Assembly: GCA_965242925.1 (NCBI GenBank)
Contig: CBDEUM010000030.1
Span: forward strand, 1-64,000
Length of the DNA stretch: 64,000 bases
Reading direction: 5' to 3'
From: Roseibacillus sp.
Lineage (GTDB): Bacteria > Verrucomicrobiota > Verrucomicrobiia > Verrucomicrobiales > Akkermansiaceae
Below, one piece after another: positions 5,790-52,887 of the stretch (position 1 is its first letter; each line of letters starts with the position of its first letter). The position numbers and the translations under genes are program-made. The notes beneath the pieces are model-generated. The model was not told the DNA's origin. It worked only from the letters and a program-made list of their open reading frames with translations, and made no database searches.

Positions 5790-8700
5790 ATGGACCGTCT
5801 CTTCGTCGAAAAGAAACCCGAGTTCAACTCCGCTTCCGGTCCCCTCCTCAACGACCTCAAGGTCAACCTGCAACTGGGTGGACTCGAGTCCCTGCGCATC
5901 GTCCAGCGCTACGACCTCGAGGGTCTCGAGCCCGCCCAGTTCGAGGCCGCCCGCCGCCTCATTCTCTCCGAGCCCCAGGTCGACACCACCAGTCGCGAAC
6001 TTCCCCTCGGGGATGGAGAGCAATGGTTCGCGGTCGAGTATCTGCCCGGCCAGTTTGACCAGCGTGCCGACTCGGCGGCCCAGTGCGTCCAGATCCTGAC
6101 CCAGCAGCAGCGACCCCTCATCGCCTCGGCCCAGGTCATCATCCTCAAGGGATCGCTCAGCGAAGAGGATCTCCCACGAATCAAGGAGTTCACCATCAAC
6201 ACGGTCGACTCCCGTGAATCCCCTCTTGAGCCACCCGAGACCCTCGCCCTCACTACCACTCCGCCCCCGGATGTCGAGATCCTCGCCGGTTTCCGGGAAC
6301 GCGACGAACCCGCCCTCGATGCCCTGCGCCAGGAACTGGGCCTCGCCATGAGCGTGGCCGATCTTGCCTTCTGCGGTGAATACTTCAGGGATGAGGAGCA
6401 TCGCGACCCCACTATCACGGAGATCCGGATGCTCGACACTTACTGGTCCGATCACTGTCGGCACACCACCTTCCTGACCAGCATCGAGGAGATCGCCTTC
6501 GACCCCGGCACCGAGGCCATCGAGGAGAGCTACAATCTCTACCAGGCCGCCCGCGCCGGGGTGTATGGCGACGAGGAACGTCCCATCACCATGATGGACA
6601 TCGCCCTGATGGGAATGAAGGAACTTCGCAAATCCGGCGAACTCCCCAACATCGAGGTCTCTCGAGAGATCAACGCCGCCAGCATCGTTGTTCCCGTCGA
6701 CGTCGATGGCCGGGAAGAAGAGTGGTTGGTCATGTTCAAGAACGAGACCCACAACCACCCCACCGAGATCGAGCCCTTCGGCGGAGCGGCCACCTGCCTG
6801 GGCGGCGCCATCCGCGACCCCCTCTCGGGCCGCTCCTACGTCTACCAGGCCATGCGGGTGACCGGGGCCGGCGATCCACGGGCCCCCTTCGAGCAGACCC
6901 TCCCGGGCAAACTCCCTCAGCGCAAGATCTGCCAGATTGCGGCCCAGGGTTACAGTTCCTACGGCAACCAGATAGGCCTTCCCACCGGGCAGGTTTCGGA
7001 GATCTACCATCCCGGCTATGTGGCCAAACGGATGGAGGTCGGAGCGGTCATCGCAGCTGCTCCTCGTATGAACGTCTTTCGTGGCGAACCAGCCACCGGC
7101 GACGCCATCCTCCTCATCGGCGGCCGGACCGGGCGCGACGGCGTGGGCGGAGCCACCGGTTCCTCCAAGCAGCACACCGACACCGCCCTCGAGAACAGCG
7201 CCGAGGTCCAGAAGGGCGACGCCCCCACCGAACGCAAGATCCAGCGCCTTTTCCGCAACCCGGAATTCGCGAAACGAATCAAGGTCTGCAATGACTTCGG
7301 GGCCGGAGGGGTCTCGGTGGCGATCGGGGAAATCGCCGACAGCCTCGAGATCAATCTCGACAAGGTTCCCAAGAAATACGACGGCCTCGACGGTACGGAA
7401 CTGGCCATTTCCGAGTCGCAGGAGCGCATGGCGATCCTCGTCGAGGCTGCTGACATCGACTTCTTCATCGCGGAAGCGGACAAGGAGAACCTCGAGTGCA
7501 CTCACGTGGCCGAGGTGGCCGATCATGGGCGACTCCGCATCAACTGGCGGGGTCAACCCGTCGTCGATCTCAGCCGGGCCTTCCTCGACACCAACGGGGT
7601 GCAGGGAAGCGGACGGGTCCAGGTGAGCGCCGCCCCCGCGGAAGGACCACTGGGGAACGCCCTTGGGTCTCTTCCAGAAACCGACGATCTGCAGGCAAGA
7701 TTCACTGCCATCCTCTCGGATCTCAACTCCGCCTGCCAGAAGGGACTGGGAGAAATGTTCGACGGCTCGGTGGGCGCGGGAACGGTCCTCTGGCCCTTCG
7801 GCGGCGCACACCAGTCCACCCCCCCGGATGCCATGGTCGCCAAGATTCCCCTTCTGGAGGGCGAAACCGACACCTGCACCCTCATGAGCTGGGGCTTCAA
7901 CCCCCGCATTGCGAGCTGGAGCCCCTACCACGGGGCAATTTACGCAGTCACCGAGTCGGTCTGCCGGATTGTCTCTGCCGGGGGCCGCCTCTCCGACATC
8001 CACCTCACCCTGCAGGAATATTTCGAGAAGTTGCACGACGACCCGCGTAGGTGGGGCAAGCCTTTCAGCGCCCTCCTCGGGGCCTATCACGTCCAGAATG
8101 CCCTTCGACTCGCCGCCATCGGGGGCAAGGACAGCATGTCAGGCTCCTTCAATGACCTCGATGTCCCGCCCACCCTCGTCTCCTTTGCGGTGGCCCCGGG
8201 AAGATGCAGCACCACGATTTCCCCCGAGTTCAAGCAGGCTGGCAGCATTGTCTCCCTCGTCAACGTTCCACGGGACGACCACAAGCGTCCGGATTTTGAG
8301 GCCCTCCGGAAAATCGCGGATCAACTCCATGCCCTCGCTTCCGGAGGCGGAATTCTCGCCATGCACAGTCTCGGCGAAGGAGGCCTCGCCGCGGGGCTGG
8401 TCAGGATGGCTGCCGGCAATGAACTCGGGTTCCGCGCGGGCGAGAGCCTTGACCCTGCCGACCTCTTCCATGAGCGCTACGCCGCCTTTGTGGTCGAATC
8501 CCCTGCCTCTCTTGCCCTCGAGGGGACCTTGGAGATCGGGCAGACGATTGCCGATCCCTGCATACAAATAGGGCCCGAGTCCCTTCCCCTCAATGACTTG
8601 CTCGAAACCTGGCGTGCTCCGCTGGAGGGGATCTACCGCACCCGGGCCGACTCCCCGCACCCAGGGATCGAGACCTTCCGGCATGCCGGGGGACCCCGCA

Positions 8701-9524
8701 TTGGCCCTCCTCGGAAGGGAACAGCCAAGCCCCTCGCCATCATCCCCGCCTTCCCCGGCACGAACTCTGAGTATGACTCCGCCCGCTCCATCCGGGACGC
8801 CGGCGGGGAGGCTGAGATCCTCATCTTCCGCAATCTCACCTCCCAGGCCGTCGACGAATCCCTGCAGGCCCTCGCCGAGGCCATCAGCAGAGCCCAGATC
8901 CTCTTCATTCCCGGGGGATTCAGTGCCGGGGATGAACCGGACGGATCCGGCAAGTTCATCGCCACCGTCCTACGAAGTCCCCTCGTCCGCGATGCCGTGA
9001 TGAATCTCATCGCCGGGCGGGACGGACTGGTCCTCGGGATTTGCAACGGATTCCAGGCCCTCATCAAGACCGGCCTCGTTCCCTTCGGTGAAATCCGTGA
9101 TCCCGAACCGGATGCCCCCACCCTCACCTTCAACGACATCGGGCGCCACGTATCCTGCTACGTGACCACCCGCATTGCCTCCAACCTGTCCCCGTGGCTC
9201 TCCCAGTGCAGCATAGACGACCTGTACCGGATCCCGGTCTCCCACGGAGAGGGAAAGTTCTACGCTTCACCGGAGCAGATCCGTGAACTGTCCGCCAATG
9301 GCCAGGTCGCCACCCAGTATTGCGACCACGACGGCAATCCCAGCATGGACATCCCGCACAACCCCAACGGTTCCCTCTTTGCGGTGGAAGGGATCACCAG
9401 CCCCTGCGGACGGGTTCTCGGCAAGATGGCCCACACCGAACGCCGCGGAACCGATATCGCCAGGAATATCCCGGGGGAGAAACACCAGCCCCTCTTTGAA
9501 AGCGGAGTGAGCTACTTCCAGTAG
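5790..9524 (+). CDS. purL: Phosphoribosylformylglycinamidine synthase, large single-chain (clostridial-type) form
   Basis: DTYWSDHCRH, KNETHNHPTEIEPFGGAATCLGGAIRDPLSGR, ISESQERM, GGKDSMSG; glutaminase domain PGGFSAGD, GICNGFQ, GKMAHTER. Confidence 0.97.
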   Translation: MDRLFVEKKPEFNSASGPLLNDLKVNLQLGGLESLRIVQRYDLEGLEPAQFEAARRLILSEPQVDTTSRELPLGDGEQWFAVEYLPGQFDQRADSAAQCVQILTQQQRPLIASAQVIILKGSLSEEDLPRIKEFTINTVDSRESPLEPPETLALTTTPPPDVEILAGFRERDEPALDALRQELGLAMSVADLAFCGEYFRDEEHRDPTITEIRMLDTYWSDHCRHTTFLTSIEEIAFDPGTEAIEESYNLYQAARAGVYGDEERPITMMDIALMGMKELRKSGELPNIEVSREINAASIVVPVDVDGREEEWLVMFKNETHNHPTEIEPFGGAATCLGGAIRDPLSGRSYVYQAMRVTGAGDPRAPFEQTLPGKLPQRKICQIAAQGYSSYGNQIGLPTGQVSEIYHPGYVAKRMEVGAVIAAAPRMNVFRGEPATGDAILLIGGRTGRDGVGGATGSSKQHTDTALENSAEVQKGDAPTERKIQRLFRNPEFAKRIKVCNDFGAGGVSVAIGEIADSLEINLDKVPKKYDGLDGTELAISESQERMAILVEAADIDFFIAEADKENLECTHVAEVADHGRLRINWRGQPVVDLSRAFLDTNGVQGSGRVQVSAAPAEGPLGNALGSLPETDDLQARFTAILSDLNSACQKGLGEMFDGSVGAGTVLWPFGGAHQSTPPDAMVAKIPLLEGETDTCTLMSWGFNPRIASWSPYHGAIYAVTESVCRIVSAGGRLSDIHLTLQEYFEKLHDDPRRWGKPFSALLGAYHVQNALRLAAIGGKDSMSGSFNDLDVPPTLVSFAVAPGRCSTTISPEFKQAGSIVSLVNVPRDDHKRPDFEALRKIADQLHALASGGGILAMHSLGEGGLAAGLVRMAAGNELGFRAGESLDPADLFHERYAAFVVESPASLALEGTLEIGQTIADPCIQIGPESLPLNDLLETWRAPLEGIYRTRADSPHPGIETFRHAGGPRIGPPRKGTAKPLAIIPAFPGTNSEYDSARSIRDAGGEAEILIFRNLTSQAVDESLQALAEAISRAQILFIPGGFSAGDEPDGSGKFIATVLRSPLVRDAVMNLIAGRDGLVLGICNGFQALIKTGLVPFGEIRDPEPDAPTLTFNDIGRHVSCYVTTRIASNLSPWLSQCSIDDLYRIPVSHGEGKFYASPEQIRELSANGQVATQYCDHDGNPSMDIPHNPNGSLFAVEGITSPCGRVLGKMAHTERRGTDIARNIPGEKHQPLFESGVSYFQ

Positions 9525-9602
9525 GGCCGCTACCGCACGAACGGGGGCATCATCCATGGGGCCGGAACTTGAAGGACCGTTGCCACCCTTTCCCGGCAAT
9601 CC

Positions 9603-10247
9603 CTAGGCCTTGCGCGCCTCAATTACCCCGTTTTCCATTCTCAGGACACAATCGGCCAACTGATCGGCCTCCCAGCTGCTGTGAGTGACATGCAGGACAG
9701 TGACCGCATGCTCCTTCTGTATCCTCTTGAGGAGAGCCATCATCCCCTCGCGCATGTCCTCGTCGAGAGCCGAGATGGGTTCATCGAGAAGGAGTACCCG
9801 AGGCTCCACCGCGAGGGCCCGACCAAGAGCCACCCGCTGCCTTTCTCCCCCGGAGAGTCCGTGAACACGACGTTCGAGAAGATGCGCAATTCCCAGTTCC
9901 TGCGCCAACCGTGAGACAGATTCATTGATATCATCCTTTGCTCTCCTGCGCACCTGGAGTCCGAAACCGATCTGTTCACCTACCGTCATGGTGGGGAAAA
10001 GAGCCCCGTCCTGGGGGACATAGCCGATGTTCCGATCGCCAGGCAGGCACCCGGTGACGTCCGCGCCAGCCACCATGACCCGGCCTGCCGACGGTTTGCG
10101 CAGGCCGCAGATGATTTCCACCACGGTGGTCTTTCCACAGCCGGTGGGTCCCATGAGGACGGCATAGTCCCCATCCTGAACTGCACAGTTCACACCCGTA
10201 AGTGAAAAATCATCCACTCGCCACGAGACGTTCTGAAGTTCAATCAT
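9603..10247 (-). CDS. modC: Molybdate/tungstate ABC transporter ATP-binding subunit (short, no TOBE domain)
   Basis: Walker A GPTGCGKT, signature LSGGERQR, LLLDEP, HVTH; adjacent to modB. Confidence 0.85.
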   Translation of the reverse strand: MIELQNVSWRVDDFSLTGVNCAVQDGDYAVLMGPTGCGKTTVVEIICGLRKPSAGRVMVAGADVTGCLPGDRNIGYVPQDGALFPTMTVGEQIGFGLQVRRRAKDDINESVSRLAQELGIAHLLERRVHGLSGGERQRVALGRALAVEPRVLLLDEPISALDEDMREGMMALLKRIQKEHAVTVLHVTHSSWEADQLADCVLRMENGVIEARKA

Positions 10248-10259
10248 CGTTCAAGATAG

Positions 10260-11093
10260 CTACCAGCGTTCGCCCACAAGGCGCATGGCCACCAGCACAA
10301 CCATGGCAAAGAGAACCATCAACAGGCTCACCGCGATTGCCCCTTCGAGGTTGCCCACGCTGAGCTCAAGCCAAACCGTGGTGGGCAGAACCTCCGTCTT
10401 CATCCGGGTCGCTCCGGCAAAAACGAGCACCGGGCCGAACTCCCCGAGACTGCGAGCCCATGCCACACTGGCCGCCGCTACCATTCCCTTGCCCGCCGCC
10501 GGCAGGGTCACCCGCCACATCGCCCCACCCCGTGAGCACCCTAATGTCATCGCCACGTCCTCCGGTCGCTGCGAAAGCTGATCGAAGGTTCCCCGCATGG
10601 TGCGGATGGCAAAGGCCACCCCAATCACGAACTGGGCCAGCACCACCCCGAATACCGTGTAGGTGAATGGTATGACGGAGTCGACAAAACCTCCCAGTCC
10701 TGTCTGGAACAGAATAAGCAGGCAAAGTCCAATCACCATGGGCGGAAGGACGATGGGGATGTCGAGGATCGACTCCACCAGGGCCTTGCCAAAAAACCTG
10801 CATCGCGCCAGGAGGTAGCCGATGGGGACGGCAGCGAGAAGCGACAGGAGAGCGGTCAGCGAACAGGTCAGGAGACTGAGATAGATCGAGTGCTGGATTT
10901 CACGCGACTGCAGGGCGCTGAGCAGATCCCCGGGAGTGCTGTGCACCGCGGTGGCAACCAGCATGGCCACGATGAACAGGACGTAACCCGCAGTGCTGAG
11001 GGCAAGGTAAAACCAGAAACGGGCATTCGGATCCCGGACGAGGCTCAGGATGAAGTCCCACGGACCGATGAAGAATCGCGCCAGGGAAGCCAT
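10260..11093 (-). CDS. modB: Molybdate/tungstate ABC transporter permease (NifC-like/ModB type)
   Basis: LDIPIVLPPMVIG, EAA-like EDVAMTLGCSR and WARSLGEFG motifs; several TM helices. Confidence 0.88.
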   Translation of the reverse strand: MASLARFFIGPWDFILSLVRDPNARFWFYLALSTAGYVLFIVAMLVATAVHSTPGDLLSALQSREIQHSIYLSLLTCSLTALLSLLAAVPIGYLLARCRFFGKALVESILDIPIVLPPMVIGLCLLILFQTGLGGFVDSVIPFTYTVFGVVLAQFVIGVAFAIRTMRGTFDQLSQRPEDVAMTLGCSRGGAMWRVTLPAAGKGMVAAASVAWARSLGEFGPVLVFAGATRMKTEVLPTTVWLELSVGNLEGAIAVSLLMVLFAMVVLVAMRLVGERW

Positions 11094-11096
11094 CTC

Positions 11097-12641
11097 CTAA
11101 CGCTTTTTCGGCTGAGCCAGCCAGGGTGGGATTTCCAGTTCCGAACTCTTGACGGGCTTCTGGTTCTCAATCCAGATGAAGCCACTTGCTTCAAAGCGGG
11201 CCCGGTTCTTCTGCATGAAAGCGAGGAGCCGCTCCCCGAGGAGCTTGCGCGGCGAATCGACCCGCACCGCAAACGGTTGTACCGCCCGCGCTCCTTCGTG
11301 GTTGATTTCGATGAAGTCGAGGTGCTCCTCGGCCAACTTGTAGTTCACCTTGTAGACGACAACGGCATCGAGACTCCCGGTCCGGATCTGATTGATGAGC
11401 AGATCTGCCGTGGGCACCTCGGCCCGGACGTTCCGGCGGATGGCCTCCTCCAGGGCAGACTGCTTCAACATTCCCTGGGTCATGAAACCCAACGTCGATT
11501 GCTGGGCGTTGTTGATGCCCACCTTGAGCTCAGGCCCGGCCAGATCCGCCAACGTCCGGATCCCCTTGGGGTTTCCCTTCGGCACCGCAATCCCGATCAC
11601 CGTTTCGGTGAGGAGGACGGCCTCCGGAAACGATGCCTCCACCGGGGGCACGAAGCAGATGTCACAGGCATAATAGGCATCAGGAAACCTTGGATTGGAG
11701 GCATCGTTCATGGCCTGCATGGCGGCACAGAGCACCCCGCACCCATTGAACATCGTCTCTACCGACACGCCCTCACGATCCGCAAACTCCCGCAGGGTGT
11801 CCGTAACGGCGGGACGATTCACCGCACCACTGTAGAGAATGAGGTTGGGCTTCTCCGCCCACTCATCTCCCGGGATCGCCTCGTACTTCATCCCGGCAAA
11901 GATCCTGCTGCCCTTCCCCGGAGCATTAAGATAACGCGCGAATTTGAGCGCGGAGGATGGCGATTCCGAGGCGTTGAGAACCGAAACGGTCACCTTGTCC
12001 TTGTGGGCGGTGAAGCGGGGGACCTCCACGGCCTCCAGTTTTTCGAATTGAGGAACCGTGGAGTTCCAGATCACGGCGGCATCCACCGCACCGAAGGAGA
12101 GATCCGCCGCCAGTTCCATGACGGTGGTCTTGGTGACGGTGACCTTCTCTCGCAATTCCTGCCAGCGATCACCCAGGACTTCCCTGGTGGCCTTCCCGAT
12201 ACTGGCAGTTTCCTTGTTCCCCACTGCTATCTTGAGATCCTCGCGAAAGAGATCCTCCATCCCCTTGATCCCCTTGGGATTGCCCACCTGCACCGCAATA
12301 ACCGGATACTGGTGGGCGAGGGGCAGGACCTCCTCAATCAGTTCCTTCTTCCGGGCCAGGTCGATGGCGTGTTCGTCGGCGGCAATAAAAAGATCGCCCT
12401 TCGGCGCATTCTCAATCTGGCTCAGAAGAGCAACGGTTCCGCCAAACTGGAAGTTGATCTGCACCCCGTACTCCTCCCGGTATTTCGCAGCAACCGCCTC
12501 AACCGGCTTCTTCATACCCGCCGCGCAGTAGACCGTGATGGACTTTGCGTTGGCGTTGCTCCGGCGGTCCTTGAAGTAGGTCCACACCAGGGCCCCGATC
12601 AGAAGAACGGCGGCGGTCAGGATTACGATGAGTGCCTTCAT
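11097..12641 (-). CDS. modA: Molybdate-binding protein with two tandem ModA domains and N-terminal membrane anchor
   Basis: Domain 1: TVYCAAGMKKP...FGGT...GDLFIAAD...GNPKGI. Domain 2: LYSGAVNRP...FNGCG...PDAYYACD...GNPKGI. 514 aa, about twice a normal ModA. Confidence 0.85.
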   Translation of the reverse strand: MKALIVILTAAVLLIGALVWTYFKDRRSNANAKSITVYCAAGMKKPVEAVAAKYREEYGVQINFQFGGTVALLSQIENAPKGDLFIAADEHAIDLARKKELIEEVLPLAHQYPVIAVQVGNPKGIKGMEDLFREDLKIAVGNKETASIGKATREVLGDRWQELREKVTVTKTTVMELAADLSFGAVDAAVIWNSTVPQFEKLEAVEVPRFTAHKDKVTVSVLNASESPSSALKFARYLNAPGKGSRIFAGMKYEAIPGDEWAEKPNLILYSGAVNRPAVTDTLREFADREGVSVETMFNGCGVLCAAMQAMNDASNPRFPDAYYACDICFVPPVEASFPEAVLLTETVIGIAVPKGNPKGIRTLADLAGPELKVGINNAQQSTLGFMTQGMLKQSALEEAIRRNVRAEVPTADLLINQIRTGSLDAVVVYKVNYKLAEEHLDFIEINHEGARAVQPFAVRVDSPRKLLGERLLAFMQKNRARFEASGFIWIENQKPVKSSELEIPPWLAQPKKR

Positions 12642-12680
12642 GCAGGATGCAGAGATAGTTTCGCGGAAGGATTGGGAGAA

Positions 12681-13769
12681 TCAACTTCCTTTCACTCCAC
12701 CCCTCCCCCTGACCAGACAGCAGACGGCCAGCACACCCGTCAGGGCCACCAGGGCGCTGATCACTGGTCCGACCGCAGGATGCGCCTTCAGGCGTTTTCT
12801 TTCGCCATCTGCCTCATCACCTGCAGGAATCCCGCCACCCTCGATACGCACTACTTCCGGACGAGACTCGGGTTCCTTGTCCTCTATTGGGGCAGCTTCG
12901 CCTCCGTCATTCTCCTCCGAATCCTCATCCCCTTTCTTCTCCCACTCCATTTGAGCTGCCAGCAACGCCTCGTCCCAGTCCAGCGCAATGCCAAGATCCC
13001 AGCCGGGATTCTGAAACTTCACCCGGCACGAGCAGGCCCCGAGGAGGAAGAGCGAGACTTCATCAATCCCCTCCTCATTGAGCTCACTCGAAGACCAGGC
13101 CCCGAGCACCCGCCCCCGGCCAAAGACCACCCCTCCAAAAGGCTCCTCCTTCTCAAGGAGTTCACCCTGCGGCCCCGCAAGCATACGCAGGAAAACCTGC
13201 TCTTCCGGATCGTCGCGTTTGATCTTCATGAAAGAGAATCCAACCCGCAATCCGGGACCGGGACCAAGCGTGCTCTCAGGGTCGGTTGGATCCTGCTCCG
13301 GGATGGCAGCCACCCCCTGCAGATACTCCAAACGGGCATTAAGGATCCCTTCAAATTCTCTGTCGGCGCGGTCATCCCCACTGCTCACCATGACCCAGAT
13401 CATCGACTCACCGGCCAGAATGCGTCTGGCCAGTTCCCTGCGGACAGGCGACTCAAGGAGAGCGGTGGCATTCTCGTCAAGCGAGCCGCTCCAGACAACC
13501 GGTCCGTCTTCGGGCATGAGGAGCCGCGCGGATGCTCCCGCTTCCGCCAGTGGCAGCACCTCCAGTTCGGTTCGGTTCTCATCGAGAAACTTACGCAACT
13601 CAGCCCCGGCCTTCCCCTCCATCCAACCTGCCGGCGCTTCCAGTCGATAGGGATCGGCAGGCCAGCGATCCAGAGCGTAGCGAAAGACCGGCACCGTGCA
13701 GGCAGAGGCAATCCCTCCGACCAGAGCGAGTCCCGGGAGGAGAAAAGCAAGTAATCGATTCGATAGCAT
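12681..13769 (-). CDS. Exported, C-terminally anchored hypothetical protein with Cys motifs (362 aa)
   Basis: Likely start ATG 13769 (MLSNRLLAFLLPGLALVGGIASA/CTVPVFRYALDRW), 7 nt after the upstream stop; GACSCRVKFQNPGWDL motif; acidic linker; C-terminal TM followed by a basic tail. Confidence 0.8.
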   Translation of the reverse strand: MLSNRLLAFLLPGLALVGGIASACTVPVFRYALDRWPADPYRLEAPAGWMEGKAGAELRKFLDENRTELEVLPLAEAGASARLLMPEDGPVVWSGSLDENATALLESPVRRELARRILAGESMIWVMVSSGDDRADREFEGILNARLEYLQGVAAIPEQDPTDPESTLGPGPGLRVGFSFMKIKRDDPEEQVFLRMLAGPQGELLEKEEPFGGVVFGRGRVLGAWSSSELNEEGIDEVSLFLLGACSCRVKFQNPGWDLGIALDWDEALLAAQMEWEKKGDEDSEENDGGEAAPIEDKEPESRPEVVRIEGGGIPAGDEADGERKRLKAHPAVGPVISALVALTGVLAVCCLVRGRGGVKGS

Positions 13770-13776
13770 CCTCGTC

Positions 13777-16700
13777 CTACTTTCTTCCGAATCGATGCAC
13801 CTTGCCGTCCTTGGTTGCCACGAAAAGACTGCCGTCGGCGACTGCCATGCCATCCCATACGGGCAGGGCCTCGAGTTTGAGTTCCTGGTTCTGTTCGCCA
13901 CTGGAAACCGAAACAGACAACAGCTTGCCACCCACGGCACCCTTGAGGGCCTCGTCCTGCCGTTCCAACACCTTATCAACTTCCTTATCCTTCTCCATAA
14001 TCCGTTCAAATGTGTATTCCTCGTCCATGATATCGGGAGGCCCGGCCACCAGGAGGGTGTCACCCGCCAGAACCATGCCCTGGGCGAAGAGAGGAACCTG
14101 CCGGTTCCAGTCACGCTGCACGTAGGAATTGCTGCCCCGTTGATTGCCACCTGCTTTTCCCTTTTTCGGGGGCCCTTCGGAACCAGACCGCCTGGCCCTG
14201 CCTGCCCTTACCTACCTCCACTCCGCTCAGAGCTCCATGATTCCTGCCCTGTGATTCATCCTTCGCACTCGGGGTGTCAAAGGAACAGGCCAGAACGGCC
14301 TCTTTGTTGCTCTTCCGTGCCATGAGAGGATCGGCATGGTTCTTCCTGATTTCAGCCGCACCTACCTCTCGGAAAGATACTCGCAATTCGTCAAGGAGAC
14401 CGGTGAAAGCAAACTCCGTCTTGTATTGCCCGACCGAAGACCCGGAATCCATCGCCAGGTCCAGACCCTGCGCCGGAAGTTTGGAGAGCAACCCGGTCGC
14501 CTTCCCCTCCGCAGCCAGTTCCCCGTTGAGATAGAGCTTCATCGACTTGTCCTCTCCCAGCACAGCGACCAGATGACTCCACCCCTTCTTGAGTGGTTTC
14601 TCAGCCGAGATAACGGTAAGTTTCTCGTCTGCTCGCACCTGAAAACTCGGAATCCGCTTCTTCAAGGTGAGGGCATAGCCGTTGAGAGGCCCGCCATGGG
14701 CCAGCACCACCCCGCCCGGTCCGTCTGGAAACACCCAGAGCTCCACCGTTACCGGTTTTCCCGTCGGGTCCATGCTTTCACGGGGTTTGAAGGATACGAG
14801 GGCATTGGAGCGTGCACGCCCCCCTCCAGCGCTGGGAGCGGGTGCATCCGGAGCTTCCCGATCCGCACCAAAAAGCTGATGCTCGATGGTGGTCGTCCAG
14901 CGCAGATATTTCGGGTCCCGTCCGAATCCATAGACCTTGTCCTTGTTAAAGACGAGCATGCGACCAGCGGGGGCATACTTGCCGGCCTGATGATAGCCGT
15001 TGTGTCCTCCTGCGAAGTTTCTGCCGAAAACCCAGTAGGCCCGGTGGAAGTAGGTGTCATCCAGAAACCCCATGGGCGCGAAGAGATGGGCGCCCTTTCC
15101 CTTCTGGGCCCCGCCCTGGGCGGCTGCATTTCCCGAGATCGGCCCTATTTCAAGGCGATCCCCGCTCTTCTTGTCAATTTTCTGGGAGCGCAGGTAGGTA
15201 TGCTCTCCGTCACTGCTGAGAATATCAGGCAAACCCACCTGCATCTGGAGTGTCTGCAGCCGATCCTGAATATCGCCACCGGTTTCCGGATCCCGATGAT
15301 CCATCACCCTCTCCAGCAACTTCCTTCCAGTCTTCACCTCGAGCTGAAAAAACCGCAGCCCGTGATCCAGGAAGGTGGAACGCCCAGCCACAAAGGACGC
15401 AATGCCATCCTCTACCAGCACCGTGCCATGCACCGGCCAGACGCTCTCAATCTGCTCAAAGGCCATGAGCCGGCGATCAACAGGTGCCGCGCGAAACTTC
15501 CAGATGAGGGATCCATCCTCCGCACGCAGACAATAGACCGAGCCATCAGCAGACCCGAAAACCAGACGTCCCCTCCAGTAGGCAGGAGGAGAATCAATGC
15601 GCGCCCCAGTCGTATAACTCCACTGTTTTTCACCGGAAACCGAGGAAAGGGCATGCAGGGTATGTTGATCAATCTGCGCGACATAGACCTGATCCTTCAC
15701 AATCGTGAGGGCACTGAGACGCCCTCCAAGCTTCACCTTCCAACTCTCGTCGAGGTTGTCGACGAGATCCTGCCCCGATGCTCCACTGCGCTGGACATTG
15801 CCACGAAAGGTCGGCCAGTCATTCTCCCCGGCCACCACCTCATTCACCGGCTCACTGAAAGAGGGCCCCTTGGACAACCGGCCCTCATCCGATATTTTTC
15901 CGGGGAGCTGAAAGGTGGTCGACGCGGGAGCCAGCGCGTTAAACCCGTACAACTTGGCTTCCGGGTAGCAGGCGCAGTTATGGGGTGGTGCATAGGTCAA
16001 ACCGTTGGCAGGCATCACACCATAAAGACATCCACCCCGCACCCAGTGATTGATATCCCAGTCTTCCTTGTCGAAATCCACGAACTCAATTCCCGTGCGG
16101 GAGGGAATGAGGAACCGTTCCGTCGCCTTCGCAATATAGCAGCGGTGGTGAAACCAGTAGGTTTTCACATTTGGCGGAAACTGCTTTTTCACCTCTCCGG
16201 TGCGGGGATCCCGGCCGGTGTAGACCCCACTGTGGCCACCGCTGGTCAGGGGCGCGGACCAGACCAGCCCTCCCACCACCAGAAGATCCTGAGGTGACTG
16301 GTAACCGGAGGGATCGTGCGTGGCCTCCCAGAGCCTCTTGCCGCTGGCAAGGTCGTAGCCCTGCATCTTGTTGTCTCCTCCGGCGTAAAGGACCACGTCC
16401 CGGTAGATTACAAGCCGGGGGGCGAAGTTGAAGGGGATGAGCGTCCGGCGCCCGGCCTTCTCACTGCTCCACCGCTGCTCACCGGTCTTGCGGTTAAGGC
16501 AGATCACGTTCTCCCCGTCGTGATAGACCAGGACCTCTCCAGCCACCGAGAGGCTCAGCGGAGAAATCTTGTCCTTCTTTTCCCACAGAAGATCTCCGCT
16601 CTCGGTTCCATAGGCCCGGATGCTTCGCGGTTGGGCGTTCCAGACGAATTCGGTGCGCACCCGTGCCTGGTCCCCGACATTGTGTTTGGGGGCATAGTCC

Positions 16701-17662
16701 TTCAACTCTGACTGACCTTCCCGGATGAGGGTGAAGAGAATCCCTTCATGATGGATGATCTCCTCCGCCTTTTCCGAACCCTTGAAGACGCCACGGGTTT
16801 CGCCGCTCGCTGCATCGATATGCTCAACCGGTCCGGTAATGCTCCGCGTCACAAAGAGTCGCTCCCCATCCACCACCAGACGACGGGCCAACTGGCTGGG
16901 ACCGCTCTTCAATGGCCAGAGTTGGTTATGCCATTTCGTGATTGGACGCTTCCACAGAACCGTCCCGTTGAAGGCATCGCGCGCAATCAGTTTCCAGTCT
17001 GAAGGCAACTGGATGGATACCCTGGACCCCTCGTCCATGATGTAAAACATGCGCCCCCCACCCGAGACAAGAGCGCTCATGGAGGCCATCCGGTCGTGAT
17101 GGCGTGACCAGCGCGGACTCCCCACCCACTGCATCCGCCGAGGCGGCCCTACCACCCTGTCCCTGGCCACCGCATTCCCGGAGGGATTGTGAAAGTAGTG
17201 CGTCCAATCGTCGATCTCCTTCGGACGGGGCTTCACCGTCTTCTTCCATGCGCCATCGCGACGCACCCAGGCAACTCCCTCCGGAACCAGCACCCGTAGA
17301 ATCTCCTCTTCACTGACCCCGGCAGCCTCCTCCGCCACGATCAAATTCACAAAGTTCTCGATATAGGGCAGGGTCCTGCCATCGAACTGCTCCACTGAGA
17401 CAGCCCCGTAGAGTCCTTTGGCGCGCAATGCCGAGCGCGCCTTTTCCACCGTGGCAGGATCCACGCTCAACCCCTGTACAAGGTAGCGGTTATCCACTCG
17501 AAGGGAGGCAGTCAGGACGGGGTCCGCCGCGCCGATCTGCACGACGAGGCCACCCTTCACCCGGGAACTGCGGACAGCGTCTTCAAGCGAAGCCGGAGCG
17601 GCCAGAATGCTAGCTCCAAGAAGAGGCAGAAAAGGGAGGATATGATTAATCTTCACGGCCAT
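13777..17662 (-). CDS. Large exported protein: class I methyltransferase-like domain, PQQ/BamB-like beta-propellers and LamG; split by a +1 frameshift near 14170
   Basis: ORF 14111..17662 has a signal peptide, a GLVVQIG...LPYIENFVNLIV...ILRVLVPEG MTase-like fold, DWTHYFHN, ARDAFNGTVLW, DWPTFRGN propeller blades and LamG. ORF 13777..14121 supplies the last propeller blades (LLVAGPPD...PVWDGMAVADGSLFVATKDGKV). Removing one base of the G5 run 14168-14172 joins them into 1294 aa. Confidence 0.82.
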
Positions 17663-17784
17663 GGTTGTGCCCTAGGGCCCCTAGAGTGGGACTCCGCCCC
17701 GGCTTGCTCAACTAATCATTCCGGGAAATCTCCTGTCAGTGGACTTTTCATGCTTCAGAAAGGGGGCTAGCCTCCAGAATTCCC

Positions 17785-18060
17785 ATGAAAATCACCGTCC
17801 AGTTTCTCGGTCAGGCCCGCCAGTTGGCGGAATCCAACCGTGTGACGGTGGAAGTGCCGGAGGGAACCTCCGTGGATGCCCTCCTCCCGGGGCTTACCGC
17901 AGAGGCCTCCGAACGCCTTCTTGCCGTGTTGGTCGAGGACCAGAAACTTCACCGCAGCGTGATCGCGATCCTGAACGATGAGGCAATCGACCCAAGCGAC
18001 CAGGATCTTCTCCAGGACGGGGACGAACTCAGCCTCTTACCCCCCATGTCGGGCGGATAG
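17785..18060 (+). CDS. MoaD/ThiS-family ubiquitin-like sulfur carrier
   Basis: 91 aa; MKITVQFLGQAR start; ends LQDGDELSLLPPMSGG with C-terminal Gly-Gly. Confidence 0.92.
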   Translation: MKITVQFLGQARQLAESNRVTVEVPEGTSVDALLPGLTAEASERLLAVLVEDQKLHRSVIAILNDEAIDPSDQDLLQDGDELSLLPPMSGG

Positions 18061-18071
18061 GAATCTACCAC

Positions 18072-18842
18072 ATGGAATTGACCGGTGAAGAGCGCGCCAT
18101 CTACGAATGGCAGATCTGGGTGGACGGACTGGGCCCGTCCGGACAGGAGCGACTGAAGGCATCGACCGCCCTCGTCACCCGCGTGGGCGGACTGGGAGGA
18201 CCTCTTGCCCAATCCCTCGCCGCGGCGGGGATTGGAAAACTGATCCTCGCTCATGCGGGAAACACAAAACCAAGCGATCTCAACCGGCAGATTCTGCAAA
18301 CCCACGGTCAACTCGGGAAGTCACGCATCGAGTCCTGCCAAAGGCGCCTGCTCGATCTGAATCCCCGCCTGGAGGTCGAGGCCGTGCCAGAGAATGTTCA
18401 TGAGGGAAATGCCGCTGAGCTCGTCTCAGGGGCAGATATTGTTTTCGATTGCGCACCTCTCTTCGAGGAACGCCTCCTGCTGAACCGCGAGTGCGTCCGC
18501 CAGCACAAGCCCCTTATCGATGCCGCCATGTTCGGCCTCGAAGGCCAGCTCACCACCATCATCCCCGGCCAGACCCCCTGTCTGGCCTGCCTCTACCCCG
18601 AAATTCCACCCGGCTGGAAGCGCGAGTTTCCTGTCATCGGCGCTGTTTCCGCCACGGTGGCAAACCTGGCCGCCCTGGAAGGAATCAAGCTTCTCGCTGG
18701 CTTTGGCGAACTGCTCACTTCCAAACTTCTCGTTTATGATGCGCGTTCCATGACCTTCCGCAAGATCGCCATCCACCGCCGCGTCGATTGTGCTGTATGC
18801 AGCACGCTCACCCCGGGAACTCCTGCTGAGAAGGACGACTAA
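18072..18842 (+). CDS. HesA/MoeB/ThiF family E1-like adenylyltransferase
   Basis: GQERLK, VGGLGG nucleotide loop, DLNRQIL, Zn sites CLAC and CAVC; no rhodanese domain. Confidence 0.9.
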   Translation: MELTGEERAIYEWQIWVDGLGPSGQERLKASTALVTRVGGLGGPLAQSLAAAGIGKLILAHAGNTKPSDLNRQILQTHGQLGKSRIESCQRRLLDLNPRLEVEAVPENVHEGNAAELVSGADIVFDCAPLFEERLLLNRECVRQHKPLIDAAMFGLEGQLTTIIPGQTPCLACLYPEIPPGWKREFPVIGAVSATVANLAALEGIKLLAGFGELLTSKLLVYDARSMTFRKIAIHRRVDCAVCSTLTPGTPAEKDD

Positions 18843-18899
18843 GAACCCTCTGAACCTGCCTCACTCGGTCGAACCTGCCGCCCCCCCGGATTACTTCGG

Positions 18900-19691
18900 T
18901 TAGTCAGCCTGCTGGAGAGCGCCGGCAATCTCCTCGGCGTAGCGGGTGGCGCATTCTCCTGGTGAGCCCGCCTCCCCGTAAAGCACCCCACGGGACACAT
19001 TCACCACATTTGGCGCCTGACGCTCCGCTCCCGTCAACATCGAGAGATCGCCCCCCTGCGCGCCCAGTCCCGGAATCAGGAGCGGCACATCCGGCAATCC
19101 GGCCAGCACATCTTCGCCGGCATTCGTCAACCCCACCACCAGGCCAACCTCCGTCCCGCGCTCTTCCCCCGCAGCCCGCTCCGCGAATTCACCGACCAGC
19201 TCAAAAATCCTGCGCCCCCCGCTCTCGCGCCGCTGCAGATCATCACTGCCGGGATTCGAAGTGACCGCCAGGAGGTAGATCCCCTTCCCCGGGTAGTCGA
19301 GAAAGGGCTCCAGCGAATCGTAGCCCATGAAAGGGTTCAGGGTCACCGCATGAGCCTCGAAACCCTCGAAACAGGCCTGTGCGTAGCGACGCTGCGTTTC
19401 ACCGATATCACTGCGCTTGGCATCCAGGATGACCGGAACTCCTTCCGGGATACGCCCCATCACACGCTTCAGCATGGCCAGGCCTTCCGGACCCATTGCC
19501 TCGAAGTAGGCGATGTTCGGCTTGTAGCACGCCGTCCTCGCAAGGGTTTCCTCCACCACCTCGTCCAGGAAGCGCTCCACTTCTTCGATTTCATTGTCGT
19601 GCCGTTCAATACGCGGGTCCAGTCCAACGCAGAGATTCGATCCCGTCGCCTCGATGCGGGCCGCCAACTGATGCGAGTAGCGCACTTCCAT
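18900..19691 (-). CDS. pyrF: Orotidine-5'-phosphate decarboxylase (type 2)
   Basis: LCVGLDP, YKPNIAYFE, ILDAKRSDIGET, TSNPG, LIPGLGAQGG, NVSR. Likely start ATG 19691. Confidence 0.95.
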   Translation of the reverse strand: MEVRYSHQLAARIEATGSNLCVGLDPRIERHDNEIEEVERFLDEVVEETLARTACYKPNIAYFEAMGPEGLAMLKRVMGRIPEGVPVILDAKRSDIGETQRRYAQACFEGFEAHAVTLNPFMGYDSLEPFLDYPGKGIYLLAVTSNPGSDDLQRRESGGRRIFELVGEFAERAAGEERGTEVGLVVGLTNAGEDVLAGLPDVPLLIPGLGAQGGDLSMLTGAERQAPNVVNVSRGVLYGEAGSPGECATRYAEEIAGALQQAD

Positions 19692-19900
19692 CCGGGACAC
19701 ACCCTCACCCACACCCCCGCAGGACAAAAGCGTTTCCTTCTCAATTATTGCTTCTGCCCGGGACACCCCTGCCCGGGATGCCAATAAATTTCCTCCCTCC
19801 GGCTGCCCATGACCCCGTTCAATCGGGAAAAGCAATCTCAGATCCGGTTATGTCATTGAAAACACCAGACATTCACTTCGTCCTGTGATTCAACGGGGGA

Positions 19901-21626: not shown

Positions 21627-23573
21627 TTATTCGGGACTGGAGGGTCCCGCCTCCACCGCCTTATGGACCGAAACATCCAACAGAGACGGCGGTGGCACCA
21701 CTTCTTCCGGTATGACCGCCTGGCGATTGAGTTGCTCGCCGGTATTTTCACGCGCGATGTTATCGGTGAAGGGTCGGGCCGTGGAATGACGGTCTATCAA
21801 AATCCCGAACTTGTTGTTCTTCTCAGCCACATTCCCCTCCATCCCTGCCGTCGTTCCATCTCCCGCCACCAGGATTCCTCCCAGCAAATTACCCTGCGCG
21901 CGGTTCGCCCGCAAAACAGCCCGCGCACCATTGGAAATACTTATGCCCACTTCCCGATTTCCATCGATCGTACACTGAACCAATTCCGAGTGCACCCCCT
22001 TCGACATCAGAACCACTCCGGCAAGACCGTTGCGGGTGGCCCGAGATTTTGTGATCATCACCCGTCCGCCGCCCCACGCATCGACACCATGATGAATATT
22101 CAACTGAAAGCGACAATCTCCGGCCTCGGCGGCGCTCCCCTCACCGTATACGGCCAGCCCATCCCAGCCGCATTCTGAAACCTGCACGTTGCGCAGGCGA
22201 CCGGTTCCCCCATTGATGACCGCCACCCCGTGACCGGATCCCTTATCGATATGGCAATCTTCCAGGCTGAGCTCCGATCCATCTGCAAGAACCACCGGAT
22301 AGCGCTCCCCGGTATGCACGATTCCAGTCTGTCTCAACGTCACCGCGGCCACCCTGCTGCCGCTCGCCTCTTTGGTGGCCAGGAGGACACTGGCGCTCTC
22401 GGCATCGCACTGGATGATGGATTCGTCATGGCCCACCCCCTCCAGATCAACTTTCACGTTCAGGGTCAGAGACTCCGTGAACGTTCCCGCCCCAATCCGG
22501 ATCTTGTCGTTCGGCCGGGCGGAGGCCAGTGCCTCATTGATGGTAGCGTAGTCCCGGGGCACCATCAACAGGCGCGCATAGGCCGACATCTTGTTGTAGA
22601 GATCCTCATACTCCTTCCGCTCGTCGAGCCGGATGGCTTCACGCAAGGTTTCCAGAGCGGCTTCCGAGAACTCCCCCTGGTCCAGGGACAGAGCCTTCTC
22701 GTAAAGCTTGCGCGCGCGAATGCGCCGTTCCTCCATGATCCGCATGCCCTCCGCGGTGGCGGCCTTGAATCCTGCAAGTTGTTCATGTCCCGGGACCATT
22801 GATTCCAGCTTTGCTGTGTGCGCCGCCAGAGTGGCCCACTGCTCTTCCTGCAAGGCTTCCCGGGATTTCTCCAGCAAGACCCCAATCTGGTCGTCCATTC
22901 GCCCCTCCCTGATGACCTTGATCAGGCCTGCCACCTCGGGATGGCTCGCTTCCATGCCCTGCAACTCCTCCAGTCGGGCATTCGCTTCGTCCCAGTTGCG
23001 TTCCTCGATTGCGGCGCGGGTGGATCCCACCAGGAACCCGAGTTTCTGTCGGCGGGCTTCCTCCTTGCCTTCGGATATCCTGCGGCGCCCCTCCCTGACC
23101 CGCTCCGGGTCGTCCTCAAGATCCACCAGTTTCGAGTAGATCGACTCAGCCCGGGCCCAATCACGACTCTCGACTGCGATGCGGGCATTCCCTGCCAGAG
23201 TTTCCAGATCCTGATTGTCCCGCGACTGACGCTCCTCGATGAGATACCGGTTGCCATACCACCCGGCCGCCACCACACATCCCACCAGGAGAAGAGAGAG
23301 AATCAACCGGAGGATCATGCCCCTGGCCCGCAAAGACGGTTCACGGCTTTTCTGCTCCACCACCACCGCCAGGGCATCGTTCAATCGGTCCAACTCATCG
23401 CGAAAGCTCCCCTGGAGCTTCTCGTCCTTGGTGGTTCGGACCAATTCCTCAAGTTTCTCCGCCACCTTCCCGAAAGCCGGCAAATGAGGTGAAACGATCG
23501 CACCAGGTTCGTAGCCGAGAACCTTCATGGCATCCTCGTAACTCATCTCTTCCTGGATTTGCGCCGTTTTCAC
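21627..23573 (-). CDS. Membrane-anchored protein with helical/TPR-like stalk and right-handed parallel beta-helix domain
   Basis: Likely GTG start at 23573 overlapping the nadE TGA (GTGA); one TM; VPRDYATINEAL...GAGTFTESL followed by beta-helix repeats (GNREVGI, GNLLGGI). Confidence 0.82.
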   Translation of the reverse strand: MKTAQIQEEMSYEDAMKVLGYEPGAIVSPHLPAFGKVAEKLEELVRTTKDEKLQGSFRDELDRLNDALAVVVEQKSREPSLRARGMILRLILSLLLVGCVVAAGWYGNRYLIEERQSRDNQDLETLAGNARIAVESRDWARAESIYSKLVDLEDDPERVREGRRRISEGKEEARRQKLGFLVGSTRAAIEERNWDEANARLEELQGMEASHPEVAGLIKVIREGRMDDQIGVLLEKSREALQEEQWATLAAHTAKLESMVPGHEQLAGFKAATAEGMRIMEERRIRARKLYEKALSLDQGEFSEAALETLREAIRLDERKEYEDLYNKMSAYARLLMVPRDYATINEALASARPNDKIRIGAGTFTESLTLNVKVDLEGVGHDESIIQCDAESASVLLATKEASGSRVAAVTLRQTGIVHTGERYPVVLADGSELSLEDCHIDKGSGHGVAVINGGTGRLRNVQVSECGWDGLAVYGEGSAAEAGDCRFQLNIHHGVDAWGGGRVMITKSRATRNGLAGVVLMSKGVHSELVQCTIDGNREVGISISNGARAVLRANRAQGNLLGGILVAGDGTTAGMEGNVAEKNNKFGILIDRHSTARPFTDNIARENTGEQLNRQAVIPEEVVPPPSLLDVSVHKAVEAGPSSPE

Positions 23574-51707: not shown

Positions 51708-52871
51708 TTGTCCTTGAGTTTCGCAGCCCGCTTCGCAGACCCGGATCGCCCGCTTTCTCCGCTCCTGCGGCGGTTTGCGTCCCTTCTGACTCCTCTCCAT
51801 CCGGACGAACAGGAATCCCGGGCACGGAAAAGCTCGGCTCTCTCCCGGCGTCACTTCGGACGCACGATGCGCCTCTTTGCGCCGCTCTACCTATCCAACG
51901 AGTGTGTAAACAACTGCAGCTACTGTGGATTCTCACGCGATAATCCCATCCTACGGACAACCCTCACCCTGGATCAGGTGGCCACCGAGGCCCGGCACCT
52001 CCATTCGCTCGGGTTCCGCAACCTTCTCCTCGTGGCTGGCGAACATCCCAAATTCGTCTCAGAGGGTTACCTGCAGGATTGCCTGCGCCTCCTCTCCCCC
52101 TCTGTTCCCACCCTCGGAATCGAGGTCGGTCCCATGGAGGACGAACAATATGCGGAACTGGTCGCTTGCGGAGCGGAAGGCCTGGTCGTTTACCAGGAAA
52201 CTTATCACCGGGAAACCTACCAACACCTCCATACCGCCGGACCCAAGAAACAGTTCGATTGGCGCCTCGACTGCCCTGAGCGTGCCTATGCGGGCGGTTT
52301 CCGGCGCATTGGAATCGGCGCTCTCTTCGGCCTCGCCGACTGGCGCACCGAAGCCCTCTCACTTGCCGCCCACCTCGAGTACCTTTACAAGCACTGCTGG
52401 AAGGCACAATTCACCATCTCCTTCCCACGCCTGCGACCTCATGCCGGGAATCACCGGCACCGGGTCGACCCTGGATTGACCCTCACCGATCGGCAACTCG
52501 TTCAACTCATCTGTGCCTTTCGCCTTACCTTCCCCCCGATCGGCATCGTTCTTTCCACCAGGGAACCGGCCACCCTCCGCGACCGCCTCTTTCCCCTCGG
52601 TGTCACGCACGTTTCCGCTGGCTCCCACACCGAACCGGGCGGCTACACCGGCGCAGGCACAGATGACCTCCACCACACCATCAGGGGAAGACGGATTGAG
52701 ATCGATCCCACGGAGCATACGGCCGACTGCTCCCAGGCCCGGGCCACTCCTCAGTTTGAGATAGCCGACGAACGTTCGACCAAAGCCGTTGCTGAACAAC
52801 TCCGCCGCCAGGGATTCGATCCCGTCTGGAAAGACTGGGATCGTGAAATTCTTACGCCTGCCCCAGCCTGA
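51708..52871 (+). CDS. thiH: 2-iminoacetate synthase (radical SAM)
   Basis: FAPLYLSNECVNNCSYCGF, YQETY, GALFGL, SFPRLRP, LSTRE, QFEIADER, PVWKDWD. TTG start at 51708 or 51714. Confidence 0.95.
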   Translation: MSLSFAARFADPDRPLSPLLRRFASLLTPLHPDEQESRARKSSALSRRHFGRTMRLFAPLYLSNECVNNCSYCGFSRDNPILRTTLTLDQVATEARHLHSLGFRNLLLVAGEHPKFVSEGYLQDCLRLLSPSVPTLGIEVGPMEDEQYAELVACGAEGLVVYQETYHRETYQHLHTAGPKKQFDWRLDCPERAYAGGFRRIGIGALFGLADWRTEALSLAAHLEYLYKHCWKAQFTISFPRLRPHAGNHRHRVDPGLTLTDRQLVQLICAFRLTFPPIGIVLSTREPATLRDRLFPLGVTHVSAGSHTEPGGYTGAGTDDLHHTIRGRRIEIDPTEHTADCSQARATPQFEIADERSTKAVAEQLRRQGFDPVWKDWDREILTPAPA

Positions 52872-52887
52872 CTCCTTCCCCTCCGAG

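Follow-up and report, generated by a model that had tools for sequence, protein, structure and literature searches.

The subject of this report is a seven-gene cluster in a stretch of 64,000 nucleotides (nt) from Roseibacillus sp. (contig CBDEUM010000030.1, positions 1 to 64,000), which as a whole is called the window. The cluster encodes a molybdate-type ATP-binding cassette (ABC) importer, two exported proteins with cysteine motifs (a thioredoxin-like protein, called here the accessory protein, and a beta-propeller protein) and a private sulfur-carrier/E1 pair made up of a MoaD-like protein and a ThiF/MoeB-family adenylyltransferase (E1) (Table 1). It is real, conserved and widespread in Verrucomicrobia. 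All seven genes, five on the minus strand and two diverging from them, were located where a first-pass annotation of the sequence had put them, and purL (5790-9524) and pyrF (18900-19835) border the block as that annotation had said. The tight spacing that it described held in part: the minus-strand gaps are 7, 39, 3 and 12 nt, of which the last three are as read and the 7-nt gap holds only with a +1 frameshift at 14168-14172 read through; the MoaD-like gene is separated from the E1 gene by 11 nt. Also in line with the annotation, no moa, moe, mog, molybdoenzyme or nif family was found among the 46 open reading frames (ORFs) of the window that were scanned. A simple hydropathy scan gave N-terminal hydrophobic segments in the propeller, accessory and binding proteins; the ATPase, the E1 and the MoaD-like protein had no such segment. 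No Rfam family matched the cluster region (9000-19500) at E <= 1, and the Rfam scan of the whole window gave one tRNA and otherwise no family at gathering score; no sigma-70-like site was reported in the 122-nt spacer, and promoter and terminator scans were near chance level. Public pipelines label the genes 'molybdate ABC transporter', 'hypothetical protein', 'BamB/PQQ-like protein' and 'HesA/MoeB/ThiF family', and these current labels hide a conserved system.

Table 1. Genes and spacer of the cluster, in window coordinates
Feature	Position	Strand	Length and family matches
ABC ATPase, ModC/WtpC-like, short form without C-terminal regulatory domain	9603..10247	-	214 aa; PF00005 E 6.8e-33
ABC importer permease, ModB-like	10260..11093	-	PF00528; nearest TIGR01581, modB TIGR02141
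Double ModA-like substrate-binding protein, N-terminal membrane anchor or signal	11097..12641	-	514 aa; two PF13531 stretches and PF12727
Accessory protein: exported, C-terminally membrane-anchored, predicted tandem thioredoxin-like protein	12681..13769	-	362 aa from ATG
Exported propeller protein	13777..17662	-	PQQ_2 and Laminin_G_3; about 1295 aa with the frameshift at 14168-14172 read through
Divergent intergenic spacer	17663..17784		122 nt, between the propeller and MoaD-like starts
MoaD/ThiS-family small protein ending Gly-Gly	17785..18060	+	91 aa; PF02597 E 4.7e-13 (49.9 bits)
ThiF/MoeB-family adenylyltransferase (E1)	18072..18842	+	PF00899 E 7.4e-54 (182.8 bits)

As assembled, the propeller ORF ends at 14111 (1183 aa), and reading through the frameshift takes it to a TAG at 13777-13779. 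The extra base in the five-base G/C run at 14168-14172 is most likely an assembly error that splits the gene, because near-identical public contigs and an orthologue do not have it and the orthologous ORFs are full-length. Contigs of two public runs from one study (X1 and X3) and of a run from another (X5) span the site with one base fewer, as does the orthologue at locus L011 (94% identical), which ends 4 nt before its accessory match, and the propeller ORFs, as called, measure 1282-1425 aa in 42 loci. In a further public run (X16), two contigs break at the frameshift site.

The accessory family, with 3417 representatives at 50% identity, was confirmed in 573 stretches of species-representative genomes, and gene neighbourhoods were counted in 80 loci that were kept, each fraction being taken over only those loci with enough flank. 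Most of the 80 record titles name Verrucomicrobiota, and a minority are labelled Klebsiella, Proteobacteria or Chitinophaga (labels as given, unchecked). Of 66 loci, 60 have the double binding protein downstream of the accessory gene, at no more than 1.5 kb in 56, and 44 of 58 have the propeller gene upstream of it. Genes for ModB and ModC follow the binding protein in 28 of 54 loci. The E1 gene is found downstream in the same orientation in 18 of 49 and upstream in divergent orientation in 8 of 51; of the 41 loci with both flanks, 20 have it in one place or the other. Other flanking genes vary between loci.

Together, these families occur in five or more gene orders. Genome G400 has the binding protein, modB, modC, the accessory gene, an ABC ATPase, the MoaD-like gene and E1 on one strand; the order in G326 is binding protein, modB, modC, TauE, a ThiS-ThiF fusion, MoaD-like gene and E1; and in G299 the MoaD-like gene and E1 stand tail-to-tail with the propeller gene. 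G269 combines the accessory gene, an FtsX permease, an ATPase, a permuted propeller that keeps the C...C...CxC pattern, two single ModA-like genes, modB and modC, while G089 has the accessory gene, two FtsX permease genes and an ATPase, about 3 kb with a TonB-dependent receptor and an extracytoplasmic function (ECF) sigma factor, and the importer followed by TauE. A MoaD-like gene lies directly before a cluster-type E1 in G326, G089, G299 and G400 as well as in the window; a tblastn search found genes similar to the window's own in 9 loci, all of the Roseibacillus/Akkermansiaceae group. Both binding-protein copies of G080 have a cluster-type E1 within about 1.5 kb. That genome carries one accessory/binding protein/E1 set on contig C7 (about 49.9-58.8 kb) and one on C33 (about 57-64 kb); as a separate observation, a canonical-looking ModA (141.6 bits) lies about 4.5 kb from one of the sets, and two nitrogenase gene sets lie on C8.

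Co-occurrence was counted in a sample of 401 genomes of the phylum, each at least 85% complete; kin among them are not independent, and the counts overstate the case to that extent. The accessory protein was found in 30 of the 401 genomes and MoaC in 102. The Cys-motif propeller occurs in 9 genomes, always together with the accessory protein (9 of 9) and unlinked in two (G342 and G369), and the cluster-type E1 in 14, of which 13 have the accessory protein. Because it is found in 14 genomes, 13 of them with the accessory protein, against 102 with MoaC, the cluster E1 is not the general MoeB of the phylum; its spread follows the accessory/transporter system. The first-pass annotation had treated the block as a conserved functional unit to which the E1/MoaD-like pair belongs, and this was borne out by the recurrence in several gene orders and by the association of E1 with the accessory protein (13 of 14, base rate 30 of 401). 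One could still take the working unit to be only the accessory and binding proteins, sometimes with modB and modC, the propeller and the E1/MoaD-like pair being neighbours by descent with no shared function; the propeller is missing from 14 of 58 loci and E1 from 21 of the 41 with both flanks. We consider this quite unlikely, given that the linkage of E1 takes at least four forms (divergent, downstream, inside the operon and tail-to-tail with the propeller gene), that it tracks the accessory protein across genomes and that this propeller type occurs only with the accessory protein, with the same reservation about kin. Two other roles were considered and rejected: for selenium uptake, SelD passed its cut-off in 8 of 29 accessory genomes and in 1 of 12 (G289) with an orthologous double binding protein, and for a defence system PADLOC gave generic ATPase and E1 likeness only.

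The family evidence for the importer is clearest in the binding protein. Its N half (residues 40-241) passes the modA model TIGR01256 with 71.1 bits (cut-off 62.5), as do orthologues in 10 of 15 genomes, and its solved relatives are ModA proteins (1amf, 3r26, 4kd5); on the sulfate-binding model the protein scores 22.8 against a cut-off of 155.5. Public sources likewise name it a molybdate-binding protein. The two halves align with each other at 23% identity (E 5e-10). C39 (in a YCAAG motif), C301 and C326 do not vary among 29 sequences, in which C305 and C329 reach at least 90% conservation, the C half carrying NGCGxxC (C301, C305) and YACDxC (C326, C329), which on alignment appear to fall at the places of the ModA anion-binding motifs. 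The permease, with five hydrophobic segments, scores 194 on TIGR01581 (cut-off 210.3) and 157.2 on modB TIGR02141 (cut-off 182.6), and is the sole ModB-like gene in the assembly besides a fused double permease on contig C38, which together with an SBP_bac_11 match there was judged, by form alone, to be of iron or thiamine type. The best NCBIfam match of the ATPase is WtpC, with 231 bits over positions 1-209 of 347 (cut-off 440), followed by modC TIGR02142 with 170.9 (cut-off 285), of whose 353 positions it matches only 5-213.

Neither Pfam nor NCBIfam gave a match to the accessory protein, and the ESM Atlas returned unnamed clusters only. Its structure model shows a tandem thioredoxin-like protein without the canonical CxxC where the first helix begins; a CSC stands instead after the last helix. 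Among 22 sequences no cysteines other than C24, C246 and C248 are invariant; these lie in the motifs AC[TS][IV]PVFRYALDRW and GACSCxVKxxNPGWD, kept with all three cysteines in 8 of 8 distant members compared. Because the signal peptide ends at an AxA-type site, the mature protein would begin at the invariant Cys24, and a C-terminal transmembrane helix found by the hydropathy scan is its membrane anchor. Prediction of a complex between the binding and accessory proteins gave scores of 0.38, 0.01 and 0.00, values that count neither for nor against binding. The window's genome (G000) has a second accessory paralogue, 33% identical and with both Cys motifs kept, at C13:209480-210454 (L091:11376-12488, minus strand); its neighbours are PQQ-like fragments and a protein of 938 residues that belongs to no known family, no ABC importer lies close by, and similar paralogue pairs occur in L044 and L046.

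So many conserved thiols might suggest that the system takes up or handles a thiophilic metal or metalloid (Cu(I), Zn, As(III) or Hg) by way of the Cys-lined C half and the three-Cys accessory protein. The alignment of GCGxxC and CDxC with the ModA anion-binding motif places and the presence of a cysteine at what would be the mature N-terminus of the accessory protein agree with such a role. We judge it very unlikely: the N half and the transporter are of oxyanion type, no metal-resistance or metallochaperone gene appeared as a conserved neighbour in the cluster flanks scanned, and the E1/MoaD-like pair would be left without a role.

The propeller protein consists of a methyltransferase-like N domain, a propeller with a C-x36-C-x17-CxC pattern, a second PQQ-like propeller, a LamG domain and C-terminal blades. 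It scores far under the family cut-offs of the PQQ-dependent dehydrogenases (TIGR03075, 35.7 against 480.05) and of BamB (TIGR03300, 63.2 against 285.2), only the generic PQQ_2 repeat passing; the ESM Atlas gave generic PQQ_2 clusters only. Invariant in 43 sequences are four cysteines (C508, C545, C563 and C565) and ten histidines (H155, H188, H189, H505, H506, H539, H561, H859, H873 and H887). The cut domain (residues 141-625) gave a weak model, with a predicted local distance difference test (pLDDT) value of 66, and since most of the four-Cys stretch is below 50, no geometry of the Cys site can be read from it. In a Foldseek search with this model the top match was tetrathionate hydrolase (6l8a_C, E 2.5e-14, TM-scores 0.45/0.50), BamB following at about 1e-12; in a profile search, tetrathionate hydrolase gave 28.6 bits to the propeller over one region of generic blades. 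The start of the protein (residues about 30-135, window about 17260-17570) resembles a class-I methyltransferase, with a Methyltransf_25 match of E 3e-6 in the orthologue L049:1612-5577. Such a domain is odd in a periplasmic protein, where access to S-adenosylmethionine would not be expected.

On this protein the first-pass annotation had built a further idea: the imported oxyanion and the activated sulfur would go into a Mo/W-sulfur centre, possibly free of pterin, on the Cys-motif propeller, which would then be a new class of metalloprotein. The invariant cysteines and histidines would suit such a centre, as would the restriction of this propeller type to accessory genomes (9 of 9), the presence of the system in two genomes where no molybdenum cofactor (Moco) pathway was found (G089 and G299), and a precedent in HesA, a ThiF-family enzyme associated with Mo and S in a non-pterin cofactor (PMC6361004). 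The topology does not seem to fit: the propeller has a Sec-type signal-like N-terminus, while ModBC would import into the cytoplasm, where the E1 and carrier lie. Moreover, the propeller is less constant than the binding protein (44 of 58 against 60 of 66 loci), not being next to the accessory gene in the other 14 and unlinked in G342 and G369, its cysteines may be mere disulfides, and the Cys stretch is modelled without confidence. Set against the conditions under which the annotation would have given the idea up, the outcome was mixed: the linkage of the genes is conserved, and the genome holds a complete Moco pathway with its own MoaD elsewhere, on contig C2. We found nothing to support the new metalloprotein class and regard a metal-sulfur centre on the propeller as the least probable of the readings weighed here.

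For the E1, the closest solved structures are ThiF (1zfn, E 6.3e-37) and MoeB (1jw9, E 8e-35). In 20 sequences the conservation of a GxGxxG motif (G39-G43) and of two CxxC pairs (C170, C173, C240 and C243) is 95% or more. In the alignment with 1zfn, K183 stands where ThiF has Cys184 and MoeB has Cys187, and no rhodanese domain is present. The protein, labelled 'HesA/MoeB/ThiF family' in public sources, stays under every NCBIfam equivalog cut-off (for example 156.4 against 376.55 on moeB TIGR02355), as does the MoaD-like protein (34.7 against 66.15 on TIGR01682), whose sequence ends ...PPMSGG. The latter is one of three ThiS-family genes of the genome, the moaD paired with moaE lying on C2. The third, a thiamine carrier gene (52897-53088), lies in the window behind a ThiH-like radical-SAM/BATS gene (51708-53088 for the two, plus strand). 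On contig C34 (L093:5981-7114, plus strand) there is a ThiF-plus-rhodanese (MoeZ-like) gene about 1.4 kb from thiG, with an in-frame TGA at the very place of the Cys that is conserved in MoeB/ThiF (...GTVPT-TGA-EEAGVLG...), which from its sequence may be a selenocysteine form of the enzyme. Closer to the cluster, at a distance of 2.8 kb, the window encodes a protein of 679 residues (21627-23666, minus strand) in which a TPR repeat accompanies a right-handed beta-helix/NosD-like region, and for which no link to the cluster was seen at other loci.

We tentatively favour, while holding its probability to be somewhat below even, a reading of the cluster as a verrucomicrobial form of the ModABC-type oxyanion importer, most likely for molybdate or tungstate, enlarged by periplasmic thiol partners and a private sulfur-carrier arm. 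Membership in the Mo/W family is suggested by the N half, which passes the modA model, and by the permease and ATPase, which score best on Mo/W-type models. Uptake of molybdate or tungstate is favoured because the window's genome has a full Moco pathway elsewhere (moaA, moeA, moaC, moaD and moaE on C2), as well as a molybdopterin oxidoreductase, and because the binding protein of the cluster is its sole ModA-like protein; beyond the cluster, the genome gave neither a ModA- nor a ModB-like transporter. More widely, MoaC is present in 11 of the 13 sampled genomes with an orthologous double binding protein (102 of 401 overall), and in 9 of these 11 the two halves of that protein are the only ModA-family matches. 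The genome's only molybdopterin-oxidoreductase match, at C22:63337-64608 (L003), falls within an open frame of 951 residues that contains a single in-frame TGA and, judged by that frame, may be a selenocysteine enzyme of the formate-dehydrogenase type.

If the favoured reading is right, the double binding protein would capture the anion in the periplasm with a ModA-like N half and a C half with a Cys-lined pocket, and the accessory protein, through a three-Cys site formed by its mature N-terminal Cys and the CSC, would act as its redox or hand-over partner. The accessory protein would probably also serve the Cys-motif propeller, in the manner of a private Dsb-type oxidoreductase with one client. 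After import of the anion by ModB/ModC, the system-specific ThiF/MoeB-type E1 would adenylate in the cytoplasm the MoaD-type carrier that is encoded beside it in several lineages, and this carrier would supply sulfur to a step that uses the imported anion. Gene content, conservation, co-occurrence, folds and motifs are what we observed; from these we infer what is transported, which proteins are partners and what the sulfur carrier does.

Several observations weigh against a molybdate/tungstate importer. Alignment to 4kd5 and of one half to the other puts Gly42, Thr68 and Trp192 at the ModA anion places of the N half and Cys301 at the Ser39 place of the C half; the anion contacts of E. coli ModA are Ser12, Ser39 and Tyr170, Gly42 replacing Ser12 and Trp192 replacing Tyr170. 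The permease and the ATPase stay under their equivalog cut-offs, modB and modC do not follow the binding protein in 26 of 54 loci, the Rfam scan found no Moco riboswitch in the window, and the best fold match of the propeller is a tetrathionate hydrolase. A lipoprotein rhodanese with a CALGGRS loop stands after the binding protein in three loci (L109, L080 and L074), and a TauE/SafE-family gene after modC in two genomes (G326 and G089). TupB-type tungstate permeases passed the cut-off in 0 of 11 genomes, and also in 0 of 14 control genomes, so that this test has no shown power. All 16 genomes with the accessory protein and without MoaC were likewise negative for MoeA, none had a molybdopterin oxidoreductase above the cut-off, and nitrogenase was present only in G301 (among 29 genomes with the accessory protein, nitrogenase, as PF00148, passed in 2). 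Two genomes with an orthologous binding protein, modB and modC (G089, 95% complete, and G317, 96%) and two with the accessory protein, propeller and E1 (G089, with a full binding protein, and G299, with a 215-residue piece only) gave no MoaC, MoeA, molybdopterin oxidoreductase or nitrogenase.

The last of these findings would fit a self-contained, Moco-independent pathway: G089 and G299 have the accessory protein, propeller and E1, although none of those Mo-related genes was found in them. Uptake of an oxyanion (Mo/W or a sulfur species) would here be joined with protein-thiocarboxylate sulfur through the private E1 and carrier, and a periplasmic relay of Cys proteins (accessory protein, Cys-lined binding domain and propeller), not described before, would act on the substrate before import. 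We think this unlikely; if it is true and the anion is Mo or W, molybdenum would serve in biology in a third way, in addition to Moco and the iron-molybdenum cofactor (FeMo-co).

The main and serious rival is a system for acquiring sulfur oxyanions, to which we give an appreciable, if minor, share of the probability. The propeller would act on a polythionate or another sulfur compound, the thiol proteins (the accessory protein and, in some loci, the rhodanese) would handle sulfane sulfur, thiosulfate or an anion akin to it would enter through the importer, and the E1/MoaD-like pair would carry sulfur as thiocarboxylate into biosynthesis. The tetrathionate hydrolase fold match, the rhodanese and TauE/SafE neighbours, the genomes where no Moco genes were found and the invariant cysteines in all three periplasmic proteins are consistent with it, as is the existence of E1/ThiS-type pairs beside sulfate ABC transporters as a described class (PMC1779556). 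Against this, the fold match comes from a weak model, is ahead of BamB by no more than roughly one order of magnitude in E and has little sequence counterpart in its 28.6 bits, and the binding protein passes modA and fails the sulfate-binding model. There is one permease gene, as in ModB, and CysTW-type sulfate systems have two. SulP transporters are already present in G089 and G317 and sulfate-assimilation genes in G089, sulfate assimilation in G326 is encoded by another cluster that includes an E1 and a ThiS, and the double binding protein occurs with Moco in 11 of 13 genomes. A survey of sulfate genes found sulfite reductase (NIR_SIR) in 5 of 5 genomes tested, reductase for phosphoadenosine phosphosulfate (PAPS) in 4 of 5 and SulP in 4 of 6 (not in the window's genome or in G326), a result compatible both with the importer being and with its not being the cell's sulfate transporter.

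Knowledge of the substrate would show how many Verrucomicrobia, which are common in seawater, lakes and soil, obtain molybdenum, or else reveal a new route of sulfur or metal handling in the periplasm. In either case the system is of interest for a natural double ModA with a Cys-lined second pocket, for a new thioredoxin-fold family with an N-terminal Cys site and for a ThiF-type E1 that tracks a transporter and not the genes of Moco or thiamine. We found no description of the verrucomicrobial system in the literature searched, and the parts considered of a paper on the comparative genomics of molybdenum (PMC6147048) hold no mention of Verrucomicrobia.

Among known systems, class 4e of Iyer et al. 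2006 unites ThiS/MoaD-JAB-E1 clusters with sulfate/sulfite ABC transporters (PMC1779556), and the cluster resembles it in encoding a rhodanese-free E1 and a small carrier with an oxyanion ABC transporter. It differs in that no JAB, SirA, PAPS reductase, sulfurylase or sulfite reductase was found in the cluster flanks scanned, and G326 has a class-4e-like cluster separately. HesA of nif clusters is a short ThiF/MoeB-family enzyme linked by genetics to the Mo and S supply of a non-Moco cofactor (PMC6361004); the cluster E1 is likewise a short enzyme of that family, a likeness by description, whereas no nif family is present among the window ORFs scanned and nitrogenase is rare in accessory genomes (2 of 29). 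With the MoeB-MoaD and ThiF-ThiS pairs (1jw9, 1zfn/1zud) the cluster shares the ThiF signature, GxGxxG, two CxxC pairs and a carrier ending in Gly-Gly whose gene lies 11 nt upstream of E1. Unlike them, it has Lys where ThiF has Cys184, carries no rhodanese domain and is not beside moaE or thiG, the genome's canonical moaD-moaE being on C2 and its ThiF-rhodanese gene on C34, about 1.4 kb from thiG; and this E1 type is found in 14 of 401 genomes against 102 for MoaC.

Of the periplasmic proteins, the propeller is closest by Foldseek to the tetrathionate hydrolase of Acidithiobacillus ferrooxidans (6l8a, 7cqy), also a PQQ-like beta-propeller and presumably exported and cofactor-less, but the two share 12-14% identity at a root-mean-square deviation of 5.6-8.7 A, BamB is nearly equal, and the verrucomicrobial protein is three times longer, with methyltransferase-like, second-propeller and LamG parts. 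The accessory protein resembles Dsb pairs such as DsbL/DsbI, which is dedicated in the periplasm to the propeller enzyme arylsulfate sulfotransferase, in being a thioredoxin-fold protein encoded beside one Cys-bearing periplasmic client that it presumably serves; in contrast to them it is without CxxC at the canonical place and has an N-terminal Cys and CSC, two thioredoxin-like domains and its own membrane anchor. The importer is like ModABC of E. coli in having one permease gene and one ATPase gene, in depending on a binding protein and in an N half that passes modA. It occurs also where no Mo-using gene was found, its permease and ATPase score under the equivalog cut-offs and the ATPase is without the C-terminal domain; and in place of a plain ModA it has a two-domain fusion with four conserved cysteines in the second half, accompanied by constant extra periplasmic partners and a private E1.

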